Virus record (IMG/VR): IMGVR_UViG_3300035491_000325
Coordinates: 1 to 40,797 of that record
DNA from: a virus
Lineage: Duplodnaviria > Caudoviricetes
Direction: 5' to 3' (one strand)
Length of the DNA stretch: 40,797 nucleotides
Positions 10,839 through 13,453 of the stretch are shown in pieces; the stretch's first letter is position 1, and each line of letters begins with the position of its first letter. Under the pieces are notes generated by a model. That model had not been told where the DNA came from. It saw only the letters and a program-made list of their open reading frames with translations, and made no database searches. The position numbers and the translations under genes are program-made.

Positions 10839-10961
10839 TGGATGGCCCTCCCGGCAAGGCTTGCGGCGGCTTCCAAATAAATAGGCTTTTTGCCCATTGG
10901 CAACGCTGTTACCAAAAGGCCAGTCTGTTGGGGTACATTCACCCCGACCGGAGATACGGAC

Positions 10962-11186
10962 ATGGCTACTACTGACCCTCTTGTTCTTGTTGCTGCGATG
11001 CGTTCGGCGTATTTGGCGTTGGCTCGCCGCCTAGCGCTGGAGCACGGCCTTGATCTGAATGGGCTTGCTGACGATCTGGATATGCTGGGCTCGACTCAGC
11101 CAGATGCTGACTGGAAGGAGGGGCATCAGACGCTTTCGGATCTGCTGCGCGGGATCGCGCTAGGTGTGCCAGCAAACGATGACTGA
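10962..11186 (+). CDS. Small acidic helical protein antisense to the early operon
   Basis: GGAGA precedes the ATG at 10962; 74 aa MATTDPLVLVAAMRSAYLALARRL... Confidence 0.55.
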   Translation: MATTDPLVLVAAMRSAYLALARRLALEHGLDLNGLADDLDMLGSTQPDADWKEGHQTLSDLLRGIALGVPANDD

Positions 11187-11529
11187 TCTCGCCCGCCTCG
11201 CTAGAACGGAGCGCGGCGGCGTCGATACCAAGCAACGGGGCTTGATGACTGAAACCCAGCTCGTTGTGTGTGGCCTGCAGGCGGTCACCGACCAGCCGGC
11301 CGGCGCCGATCAGCATCAGGCGGTTGACCAGCTTGGCGGTGCCATCGGATGCACGGGTGCGATCGACGAAGATCAGCGCCTGTTGCTTGGCTTCTTGCAG
11401 GTGGGCGGCGATGGCTGGGCCATCACCCGGCGCGCAGGCGATCAGCGCATCGAGCGCGGCGCGCCAGGCGTCCATCTCGTGAGGGAACAACTCGATCTCC
11501 TCGATTTTGATTTGCGGCTTGTCGGTCAT
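10969..11529 (-). CDS. Hypothetical early protein
   Basis: GAGGG precedes the ATG. The N-terminal ~110 aa look globular; the C-terminal low-complexity part overlaps the + strand ORF. Confidence 0.65.
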   Translation of the reverse strand: MTDKPQIKIEEIELFPHEMDAWRAALDALIACAPGDGPAIAAHLQEAKQQALIFVDRTRASDGTAKLVNRLMLIGAGRLVGDRLQATHNELGFSHQAPLLGIDAAALRSSEAGEISHRLLAHLARSRAADPKASDAPPSSQHLAESSPAYPDRQQAHSDQGRAPALGGEPTPNTPNASQQQEQEGQ

Positions 11530-11573: not shown

Positions 11574-11786
11574 TCAGGCGGCTACGGCTTCGCCATCTTT
11601 GAGGCCGAGGGCAACGGCAATGACATGCGATTGGCCGTAGTTGCCCTTGGAGAAGCCGTTAAGCACTTGATAAACGGCAGTGGGCGGGAAACCGTGGTCT
11701 TTGGCCCACTGGGTGACGGTCAGGCCTTTGGCGCGAAACTGGGCCTTTACCTGCTCGACGGTCTTGGGTTTTTGCTGGGTTGCCAT
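11574..11786 (-). CDS. Ner/Cro-like DNA-binding protein (BcepMu gp16 family)
   Basis: QVKAQFRAKGLTVTQWAKDHGF...VYQVLNG..KGNYGQSHVIAVALGLK; divergent from the repressor; GAGGAG RBS. Confidence 0.9.
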   Translation of the reverse strand: MATQQKPKTVEQVKAQFRAKGLTVTQWAKDHGFPPTAVYQVLNGFSKGNYGQSHVIAVALGLKDGEAVAA

Positions 11787-11847: not shown

Positions 11848-11876
11848 AGTATGGGTAGAAAGCTACCCATCGTCAA
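11848..11876 (-). promoter_or_regulatory. Leftward early sigma70 promoter TTGACG-N17-CATACT
   Basis: -35 at 11876-11871 and -10 at 11853-11848 on the minus strand, upstream of the ner-like gene. Confidence 0.7.
11851..11870. promoter_or_regulatory. Operator O1: ATGGGTA-N6-TACCCAT
   Basis: Perfect inverted repeat covering the early promoter spacer; second copy at 11885. Confidence 0.75.
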
Positions 11877-11884
11877 GGAGGTTT

Positions 11885-11904
11885 ATGGGTACTTATTTAC
11901 CCAT
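11885..11904. promoter_or_regulatory. Operator O2: ATGGGTA-N6-TACCCAT overlapping the repressor start codon
   Basis: Same half-sites and spacing as O1. Confidence 0.75.
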
Positions 11905-12307
11905 CGGAGAGCGTCTTGCTGAAGAGAGGAAGCGGCTCGGGTTCAATCAAACCGACTTCGCCGCTGTGGCTGGAGTAAGCAGAAAGACTCTTTTTGGGTA
12001 TGAGAGCGGCGAGCGAGCGCCAGATGCAGGAGGGCTTGCGGCTTGGGCTAGCGAAGGGATGGACGTGATGTACGTCGTGCTGGGGGAACGGTCAAAAGCT
12101 AACCCAGCCAGTCAACTGCCAGCAGATGAGCAGGTTTTGTTGGAGGCTTATCGTTCTATGCCGGCGCCCGCTCGTAAGGGACTATTGGCTGAGCTGCTTG
12201 TGAGCGGAAAGAAACCAAAGGCAAAGCCGCGAGCTGCCGATGGAATCCAGGTTTCAGGAAGTGGCCATAGGGTTGCTGGAAGGGATTACAACGAAACGAA
12301 GGAGTAG
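11885..12307 (+). CDS. Prophage repressor (XRE HTH) with C-terminal RVAGRDY motif
   Basis: IGERLAEERKRLGFNQTDFAAVAGVSRKTLFGYESGERAPD; AAGGAGG RBS; no S24 peptidase domain. Confidence 0.92.
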   Translation: MGTYLPIGERLAEERKRLGFNQTDFAAVAGVSRKTLFGYESGERAPDAGGLAAWASEGMDVMYVVLGERSKANPASQLPADEQVLLEAYRSMPAPARKGLLAELLVSGKKPKAKPRAADGIQVSGSGHRVAGRDYNETKE

Positions 12308-12311
12308 AACC

Positions 12312-12695
12312 GTGGATATCCAGGTTGAGGGGAGCAACAACCGTGTCGCCGGTCGGGACTATTACGAGAATCAGATCAAGCCTTGCCCCAGATGTGAGAT
12401 TAGGGTCATTGATCGCGAAAGGGATATTTGCAACCACTGCACGAAGGAAGAGAAAGAACAGATCGCTCAAGGGATACTGATGACGCTTGGCCTGGGTGCT
12501 CTATTCATCTTCGGCTGGTTGCTCAATTGGCGTACTGAGCGAGGCATGCCTGTTGGTCTAGAGGGACTGATTGAAACGTTCGCTCTGGCTATTGGCATAG
12601 TGATCGCTCTGGCGTCTGTGCTCTGGCTCTTTCTCCCGTTGGTTTGGGAAATCGGTGCTGTCTACTTTCAGGAGCGGCGCAGACGCCGCCGTTAA
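12312..12695 (+). CDS. Membrane protein: N-terminal RVAGRDY motif, CxxC..CxxC zinc finger, two TM helices
   Basis: GTG at 12312 after AAGGAG; CPRC and CNHC; two hydrophobic segments; C-terminal poly-Arg. Confidence 0.8.
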   Translation: MDIQVEGSNNRVAGRDYYENQIKPCPRCEIRVIDRERDICNHCTKEEKEQIAQGILMTLGLGALFIFGWLLNWRTERGMPVGLEGLIETFALAIGIVIALASVLWLFLPLVWEIGAVYFQERRRRRR

Positions 12696-12724: not shown

Positions 12725-13453
12725 ATGAATGTCAGACCTTTGGTTTCAGCTGCGCTGGTAACCCTGTTGCTATCGGGGTGCGCCACTGACTATCGAAACA
12801 AGGCCCCTGCAGAAGTCGCGCAGGCAACTCGCGTGCACGACAGCGAATACAGTGAGAACAGGATCTACCTGGCTCCGCCTGTGACAGGTAATCCCGTGAT
12901 GGGTATGACCTACGAAGCCCAGCTTGCAGCTATTCAATCCAAGAAGGATGGCTCCATAACCCATGCACTCAGGGTCAGGTGGAGCTATCTCTCCCACGCT
13001 TGGATGTTCTTCTCCAACGCCACTCTGCCTGGGCCTATTCCCCTTGAAACCGTTTCCACCAACAGGGAGGTGCATAGCTGCCGCTCTAGCCGTTGCAGCT
13101 ACTACGAAAGTACGTCCGCAGTTGTGCCCCTGGAGATCCTGGCCAATGCAGGCTCTGGCTTGAAGGTTCGCTTCTCCTCGCAGCAGGGTGCAGTCATCGT
13201 TGAACTGCCAGCCACCTATGTGCTCGGTTATCTGCAAGCCATGTCTACGGCGCTGGGCGGGGCTGTTGCGCCCCCAGTTGCTGCTCCGGCCTCAAGGATT
13301 CCCAAGTGGGAGGCTGTGCCGACACGTCCTGCAGGCCAGGCTGGTGAGGTAGTGGTGAAGAGCAAGGAGCAGCAGCTCCAAGAGCTGCAGAACACGCCGG
13401 GGCTGAGTTATGAGGAGTACCAGCGTCGGTATAAGGCGATTACGGGAAAATAG
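12725..13453 (+). CDS. Lipoprotein with a SHOCT-like C-terminus
   Basis: AAGGAG RBS; lipobox LLSGC; C-terminal QLQELQ..GLSYEEYQRRYKAI. Confidence 0.8.
   Translation: MNVRPLVSAALVTLLLSGCATDYRNKAPAEVAQATRVHDSEYSENRIYLAPPVTGNPVMGMTYEAQLAAIQSKKDGSITHALRVRWSYLSHAWMFFSNATLPGPIPLETVSTNREVHSCRSSRCSYYESTSAVVPLEILANAGSGLKVRFSSQQGAVIVELPATYVLGYLQAMSTALGGAVAPPVAAPASRIPKWEAVPTRPAGQAGEVVVKSKEQQLQELQNTPGLSYEEYQRRYKAITGK

Follow-up and report, generated by a model that had tools for sequence, protein, structure and literature searches.

The XRE repressor SinR of Bacillus subtilis is antagonized by the product of a neighboring gene, SinI, which mimics the SinR oligomerization domain in the available text on that system. 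RexB of phage λ is a membrane protein. The rexAB genes are co-transcribed with cI, and the accounts available of λ cI-rexA-rexB describe a repressor operon encoding repressor-binding proteins that shift the switch and are modulated by RexB. To our knowledge, exit from lysogeny in prophages with repressors that do not cleave themselves is a largely open question. A further precedent is given by the BASS pairs. BASS1-10 (bioRxiv 10.1101/2020.01.06.895854) and BASS11, Bab/Agp (bioRxiv 10.1101/2024.11.07.622273), are described in the available parts of these reports as adjacent genes with a C-terminal motif on the first product and an N-terminal motif on the second, which is also the arrangement described here. 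According to the available text of the BASS11 report, the C-terminal motif belongs to the protein acted upon and the N-terminal motif to the sensor (bioRxiv 10.1101/2024.11.07.622273).

We analyzed a 40,797-nucleotide stretch of viral DNA, called the window, in which a repressor ends in a 17-residue peptide (the tail) that recurs near the start of the next gene product (the head of the partner). An earlier note on this DNA had proposed a sensor-repressor signaling pair of RHIM-like character. Joint conservation, covariation, and a BASS-like layout lend partial support to the signaling pair, whereas the likeness to RHIM was not supported for this motif type.

The window carries a B3-like immunity region

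Gene content identifies the immunity region of a B3-like (Beetrevirus-type) Pseudomonas transposable prophage, because the window encodes a transposase, an AAA protein, a ner-like gene, a holin, and an endolysin, and its repressor is 51.5% identical to B3 ORF18. The repressor is divergent from the ner-like gene, transposase A and B lie to the left, and holin and endolysin lie to the right. This gene order is the same as in the Beetrevirus immunity region (B3, Ps59, Fc02), and the ner-like gene occupies the same place in B3 and Fc02. The features are as follows.

11574..11786, minus strand: Ner/Cro-like early regulator of the BcepMu gp16 family, oriented divergently to the repressor; above-cut-off match to TIGR04111 (E 2e-26); phrog_925
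11848..11876, minus strand: sigma-70-like site, candidate early promoter; weak 9/12 consensus match; position matches Fc02 pE
11885..12307, plus strand: XRE-family immunity repressor, 140 aa, with HTH, helical hairpin, linker, and tail motif, without an S24 domain
12245..12295, plus strand: tail motif, repressor residues 121-137, from translation and column conservation
12300..12304, plus strand: Shine-Dalgarno sequence of the partner, inside the last codons of the repressor, from the sequence
12312..12695, plus strand: partner, 127 aa, with head, zinc ribbon, two predicted transmembrane helices, and poly-Arg end; both ends predicted cytoplasmic
12318..12368, plus strand: head motif, partner residues 3-19, from translation and invariant residues
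12384..12440, plus strand: predicted CxxC-x11-CxxC zinc ribbon
12468..12632, plus strand: two transmembrane helices (predicted), joined by a short loop
12725..14358, plus strand: three more accessory genes ahead of the holin, encoding a lipoprotein, a weakly SieB-like membrane protein, and an unknown product; listed as context only

The promoter and terminator scan was at chance level, with one sigma-70-like site found and 1.4 expected. The end of the lipoprotein gene (12725-13453) matches Fc02 e4, and the small membrane protein at 13453-13878 matches the SieB superinfection-exclusion family at E 0.006, below the cut-off. Frames at 10890-11186 (plus strand) and 10969-11529 (minus strand) are homologues of the overlapping Fc02 superinfection-exclusion genes olg1 and gene 10 (57% and 47% identity in the aligned frames), and the olg1-like frame probably starts at an internal ATG.

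HTH_3 is the only Pfam domain in the repressor (E 1e-8). Its AlphaFold2 model (90 sequences) consists of an HTH at residues 7-66, a helical hairpin at 80-105, and a low-confidence tail. Foldseek matches to the model are generic XRE domains, and the likeness to SinR is one among many XRE folds. The repressor is 36% identical to Fc02 RepC, which has no tail. Experiments identified the Fc02 counterpart as the immunity repressor, and the Fc02 lysogen transcribes its gene together with the downstream gene, as described in the available text of PMC9936078. That downstream gene encodes a lipoprotein, JBD25 is arranged likewise, and neither phage has a tail or a partner. By this comparison the tail and partner form an optional insertion that separates the repressor core from the lipoprotein gene, because in Fc02 and JBD25 a tail-less repressor is followed directly by the lipoprotein. 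The module is also optional in that RepC represses without either part in the available text of PMC9936078. An S24 peptidase domain was found neither by the Pfam scan nor in the AlphaFold2 model, so the hallmark of LexA/λ CI-type self-cleavage is missing, as the earlier note had stated. This absence carries no information on the partner: the Fc02 repressor, with neither tail nor partner, lacks S24 too and functions as an immunity repressor.

The partner starts at GTG 12312, 7 nt behind an AGGAG located in the last codons of the repressor, and a Shine-Dalgarno-like word begins within the repressor coding sequence in 33 of 39 close pairs. Translational coupling of the two genes is likely from this arrangement. 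An upstream ATG at 12240 (151-aa frame) was rejected as the start because the Shine-Dalgarno sequence and the relatives favor GTG 12312. A frameshift fusion of repressor and partner was rejected because the frame offset varies (28, 12, and 11 of 51). The CxxC/CxxC finger and two transmembrane helices first noticed in the partner agree with the predictions made here. Its four Cys are invariant in 17/17 aligned relatives, Zn_ribbon_3 matches in relatives are weak, hydropathy places hydrophobic segments at about residues 53-71 and 89-107, and the AlphaFold2 model has long helices at 41-77 and 83-126. Both termini are predicted to be cytoplasmic because of the two hydrophobic helices and the poly-Arg end. 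A search of annotated phages with the window partner gave no match at E 1.

The tail and the head match at the protein level

The tail and the head are identical at 13 of 17 residues. Only three of these 13 use the same codon, all seven codons of RVAGRDY differ between the copies, and nucleotide identity is 32/51, which reproduces the translations, identity, and codon differences first reported for the pair. Among all ungapped 17-residue comparisons of the six-frame translations of the window, this is the sole match with 13 identities; the runner-up has 11 and lies in low-complexity junk frames. A DNA-level repeat or operator was rejected because the codons differ. Mean column conservation is 0.79 in the tail motif, 0.43 in the linker, and 0.55 in the HTH, in an alignment that was selected for the tail. 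The tail and the head are both low-confidence in monomer models.

Codon usage was compared in 46 thinned pairs of the AGRD motif type, drawn from 65 (L015 and L028 were dropped by pattern). G and N are invariant in 46/46 heads. Own pairs share 10.09 residues compared to 9.65 in permuted pairs (reached in 26 of 20,000 permutations), and codons at identical residues are shared in 34% of cases in own pairs and 33% across loci. General gene conversion or recent copying between tail and head is not seen at this level of codon sharing. These data indicate that the match is old and kept by selection, because own-pair residues exceed the permuted value while shared codons are near the cross-locus level; the claim that it is maintained in the protein and is not a recent duplication is upheld. 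The tail variants of Ps59 and L149 are not mirrored in their heads. In L015, a rare shared change lies in 8/11 identical codons and may reflect local copying.

The adjacency of tail and head and the possible copying in L015 would also suit a relic, that is, a tandem duplication that arose long ago over the gene junction and was passed on as a block without any interaction. We regard this as highly improbable: G, N, R, A, G, R, D, and E are fixed in both copies although synonymous sites are saturated, and the head persists on bodies of unrelated kinds, with genes inserted in between, and on a second downstream gene in L012 and L015. The comparisons point instead to a matched pair kept by selection at the protein level.

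The pair is conserved in other phages

The pair is present in B3 (ORF18/ORF20), Ps59 (gp17/gp18), and the P2-like coliphage 520873. The B3 and Ps59 members are annotated as hypothetical, and the body of the B3 partner is unrelated to that of the window partner. The coliphage partner (L005:3909-4076) is unannotated in its record and is cut to 55 aa compared to 216 aa in close relatives. Burkholderia phage AP3 has a different motif type, in both the tail and the head positions. Among the 136 distinct AGRD-type tails in all loci fetched, 129 have a head within 120 nt and six have one 138-688 nt away, some of them across an inserted gene, giving a head by pattern in 135/136, a count biased by the finding of most loci with the motif itself. 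For the remaining tail (L344), the head is a variant. Scanning IMG/VR with the motif gave at least 119 loci, at least 111 of them with a repressor match just upstream; the other eight among the matches listed comprise two with the repressor beyond an inserted gene, one tail-head pair, and five incomplete sequences.

A profile of 30 heads searched against 1.84 billion proteins gave 81 matches, 71 of them N-terminal and eight C-terminal on repressor-like proteins. The remaining two, the long top matches, are animal Ig repeats and were rejected as chance. NLR, Bell, and TIR domains are absent from the 67 of the 81 matches scanned with Pfam. A sequence search of the PDB with the profile gave one chance match (E 7.5), and the ESM Atlas search gave unnamed clusters only, below 0.9.

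One Burkholderia P2-like lineage (14 loci, L121-L131 and L134-L136) conserves the tail and has unrelated next genes. Neither head nor partner was found in 5/5 records of this lineage that were searched, four of which are at least 90% complete. The slot behind the repressor in these loci holds highly variable accessory genes. L345 encodes, on its reverse strand (617-1021), an HTH protein of different appearance that likewise has the AGRD motif at its end; its zinc-ribbon partner lies past an inserted gene.

Tailed repressors were compared with tail-less relatives using a profile built without the tail and searched against about 1200 genomes. The sample took 70 of the 111 Pseudomonadaceae matches, those ranked highest apart from a few skips, together with every match of three other searches; loci identical to profile members or to the centre genomes were left out. 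The 75 loci were reduced to 57 by a downstream-frame requirement and 80% thinning. The tail rule was blind to the partner and was set after the sequences had been seen. A matching head on the next gene was found for 17/19 tailed and 1/38 tail-less repressors (Fisher p 2e-11, a significance inflated by kinship). One of the two tailed misses, L227, has a matching head by eye, and the single tail-less match is a chance match. The own-partner score of the tailed loci was 45.1 compared to 24.8 when permuted, a value reached in 0 of 100,000 permutations of loci that are related and not independent. The earlier note had named joint conservation and covariation in homologous pairs as the check on its proposal. 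Both are observed, and covariation is strong between motif types and weak within the AGRD type.

Behind tail-less repressors there is often a small gene that copies the repressor HTH (L208, L212, L215, and L223, by eye), and the helical hairpin is copied by a small next gene in L240, L246, and L263 and by the L178 partner, also by eye. The copies behind tail-less repressors look like a wider habit of placing repressor mimics next door.

Motif types, charge, and partner bodies

Several motif types coexist within Pseudomonadaceae, switching in both proteins. A tree of 23 Flk-like bodies contains three sister pairs (support ≥95) of differing motif type, with tail and head differing together, and no case of mixed tail and head types occurs on that tree. 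The repressors of these sister pairs fall apart on the repressor tree, which has few columns and many open forks. Joint switching can come from a single recombination event because tail and head usually lie within 120 nt, and the three sister pairs are swaps and not three co-evolution events. The simplest reading of the trees is that repressor and head move as one cassette and that bodies are exchanged just behind the head.

A hydrophobic segment is present in 98 of 108 complete bodies, which divide by pattern into 76 Flk-like, 19 zinc-ribbon, and 13 other. The body kinds include the zinc ribbon with two transmembrane helices found in the window, the Flk-like body, and a coiled hairpin; the window partner, of the zinc-ribbon type, bears no likeness to Flk. 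The partner family met most often, phrog_5825, is related to enterobacterial Flk at half its length (L034:3400-4026, L177:509-1108, L045:3022-3660, and others), and a phage link for Flk is possible. Flk-like bodies match anti-repressor PHROGs and ORF6C weakly (E 0.0007-0.02), a hint only. About 500 nt behind the repressor, L012 and L015 have tandem partners, one zinc-ribbon and one Flk-like, each with its own head.

The tail and head consensus sequences differ in charge. Tails are neutral or basic and heads are acidic, with a net charge over positions 1-8 of +0.41 in tails and -1.02 in heads (p 4e-8, n = 46 related loci). This difference bears on the possibility that both motifs bind a third factor, for example a protease or adaptor that reads the repressor tail, with the head as a decoy. 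The Mu repressor tail is read by ClpXP, terminal and disordered motifs suit degrons, and tails persist without heads in the Burkholderia lineage. A pure decoy would not need a systematic charge difference, however, and the coexisting motif types of Pseudomonadaceae switch in both proteins. We consider a third factor very unlikely.

A proposed mechanism and the direction of the effect

The covariation and charge patterns make it probable that tail and head bind each other directly through the motif. Whether the contact has a β-arch or cross-β geometry is evenly balanced; if so, tail and head would stack as short β-arches. The repressor tail may be a self-association element, because one lineage retains it in prophages where no head was found, and the acidic head would be a mimic that prefers a neutral or basic tail. 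The chance that the head mimics this element, co-assembles with the tail, and draws the repressor to the membrane is put at slightly below even. An action of the partner against the repressor likewise falls a little short of an even prospect, and the sequence would suit an effect of either sign. In this reading, the predicted inner-membrane partner captures the repressor, which would be depleted in its free form at the early promoter, loosening or tuning lysogeny without RecA cleavage. The repressor and head would travel as a cassette, with the body behind the head as an exchangeable anchor or sensor.

The same binding could act in reverse, with the repressor tail controlling the membrane protein by templating an exclusion or abortive-infection effector or by holding a toxic protein inactive until the repressor is lost. 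The partner belongs to the accessory genes that follow the repressor, a region transcribed in the Fc02 lysogen (available text of PMC9936078), and it adjoins the weak SieB-like gene; Bab/Agp is a prophage-borne, amyloid-triggered membrane killer in the available text of bioRxiv 10.1101/2024.11.07.622273, and co-transcription with the repressor gene has its parallel in rexAB. The BASS killer bears the C-terminal motif in that text, however, which is opposite to the layout here, the bodies are mutually unrelated and many have one terminal anchor only, and PADLOC gave no match besides a generic HTH and a chance CxxC match. Reverse flow is for these reasons judged unlikely. Alternatively, the partner could stabilize the repressor: acting as a co-repressor or a scaffold at the membrane, it would nucleate repressor oligomers and make lysogeny deeper. 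Translational coupling and likely expression in the lysogen, extrapolated from the available account of Fc02, a relative with another next gene, would suit a constant partner, and an antagonist made together with the repressor would need an off state of its own. Exchangeable bodies suggest inputs and not a fixed scaffold, and membrane tethering of a DNA-binding protein more often takes it off its operators, so we hold a stabilizing role to be quite unlikely.

Capture of the repressor by the partner is the reading we prefer. A broader version of it, which appears rather unlikely, is that temperate phages of two or more families, B3/Mu-like and P2-like, link exchangeable membrane sensors to the repressor by an amyloid signaling motif. 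The partner would template a cross-β stack of the tail, giving a self-propagating, SOS-independent switch, and motif types would be specificity codes between phages.

The pair is a candidate input to the lysis-lysogeny switch, present unremarked in the classic phage B3 (ORF18/ORF20). If the binding is true, a membrane protein would gain a handle on that switch. If the contact is a cross-β stack, amyloid signaling would act on a transcription factor in phage decision-making and not in cell death. Even if it is not cross-β, a 17-residue tag coupling any membrane domain to a repressor would make a novel regulatory module, with possible use as a part in engineering.

Comparison with known systems

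A published description of the pair was not found in the full-text literature searched, a scope that excludes most subscription papers, and the word "phage" does not occur in the main text of a 2026 review of signaling amyloids or of a 2025 paper on motif detection. The conserved module is real and apparently undescribed.

The RHIM core tetrad is (I/V)Q(I/V/L)G. The window has IQVS and IQVE in its place and the Q at position 2 is not conserved, which leaves the RHIM-like label of the earlier note unsupported. L040 and L228 have a RHIM-like tetrad (IQIG/VQIG/VQLG) in both tail and head. The tetrad is visible in BASS3 peptides in the available part of the supplement of PMC8086366. Of the 36 BASS1 peptides listed in the same part of that supplement, 13 share by eye the AGRD ending of the window motif, whose spacing resembles BASS6, again by eye. 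The FHG-type pairs (L200, L232-L235) resemble BASS2, also by eye.

Like BASS motifs, the phage motif is short, rich in G, N, and V, and of several sequence types; the adjacent genes share a C-terminal and an N-terminal motif, and the within-pair match exceeds the between-pair match. The membrane protein of the window takes the receptor position of the BASS layout, and E. coli Bab/Agp is prophage-borne like the window pair, in the available text of bioRxiv 10.1101/2024.11.07.622273. BASS pairs carry NLR, TPR-GreAB-PIN, Bell, TIR, or CHAT domains, whereas the phage pair has none of them: scans with Pfam, PHROG, PADLOC, and NCBIfam did not find BASS receptor or effector domains in the pair or its relatives, and at E 0.001 the head profile retrieved no BASS-type protein among the 67 of 81 matches scanned. 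The phage motif (17-18 aa) is also shorter. Unlike in BASS, its C-terminal carrier is a phage transcriptional repressor and its N-terminal carrier a small predicted membrane protein. On domain content the pair is not a BASS member, because it has no NLR, Bell, or TIR domain.

As with SinI, with which small phage antirepressors such as AimX are grouped as the nearest comparison, a neighbor carries a copy of a C-terminal element of an XRE repressor. SinI is soluble and helical and copies a helical oligomerization domain, whereas the element copied here is a glycine-rich terminal peptide that lies outside and after the helical hairpin as a low-confidence coil, on a mimic predicted to be membrane-bound. 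The operon position is similar to that of λ rex, which differs in having two genes instead of one and has neither sequence likeness nor a shared motif. The commonest partner body matches the model of Flk (Fluke), a membrane-anchored flagellar checkpoint protein, in 10 proteins (E 1e-6 to 2e-16, well short of the curated cut-off); it shares the C-terminal anchor of Flk described in the available text of PMC13344023 and is about half its length. In its working the pair resembles a BASS pair or a SinI-type mimic, and in its position rexAB, but it departs from each of these in a defining feature.
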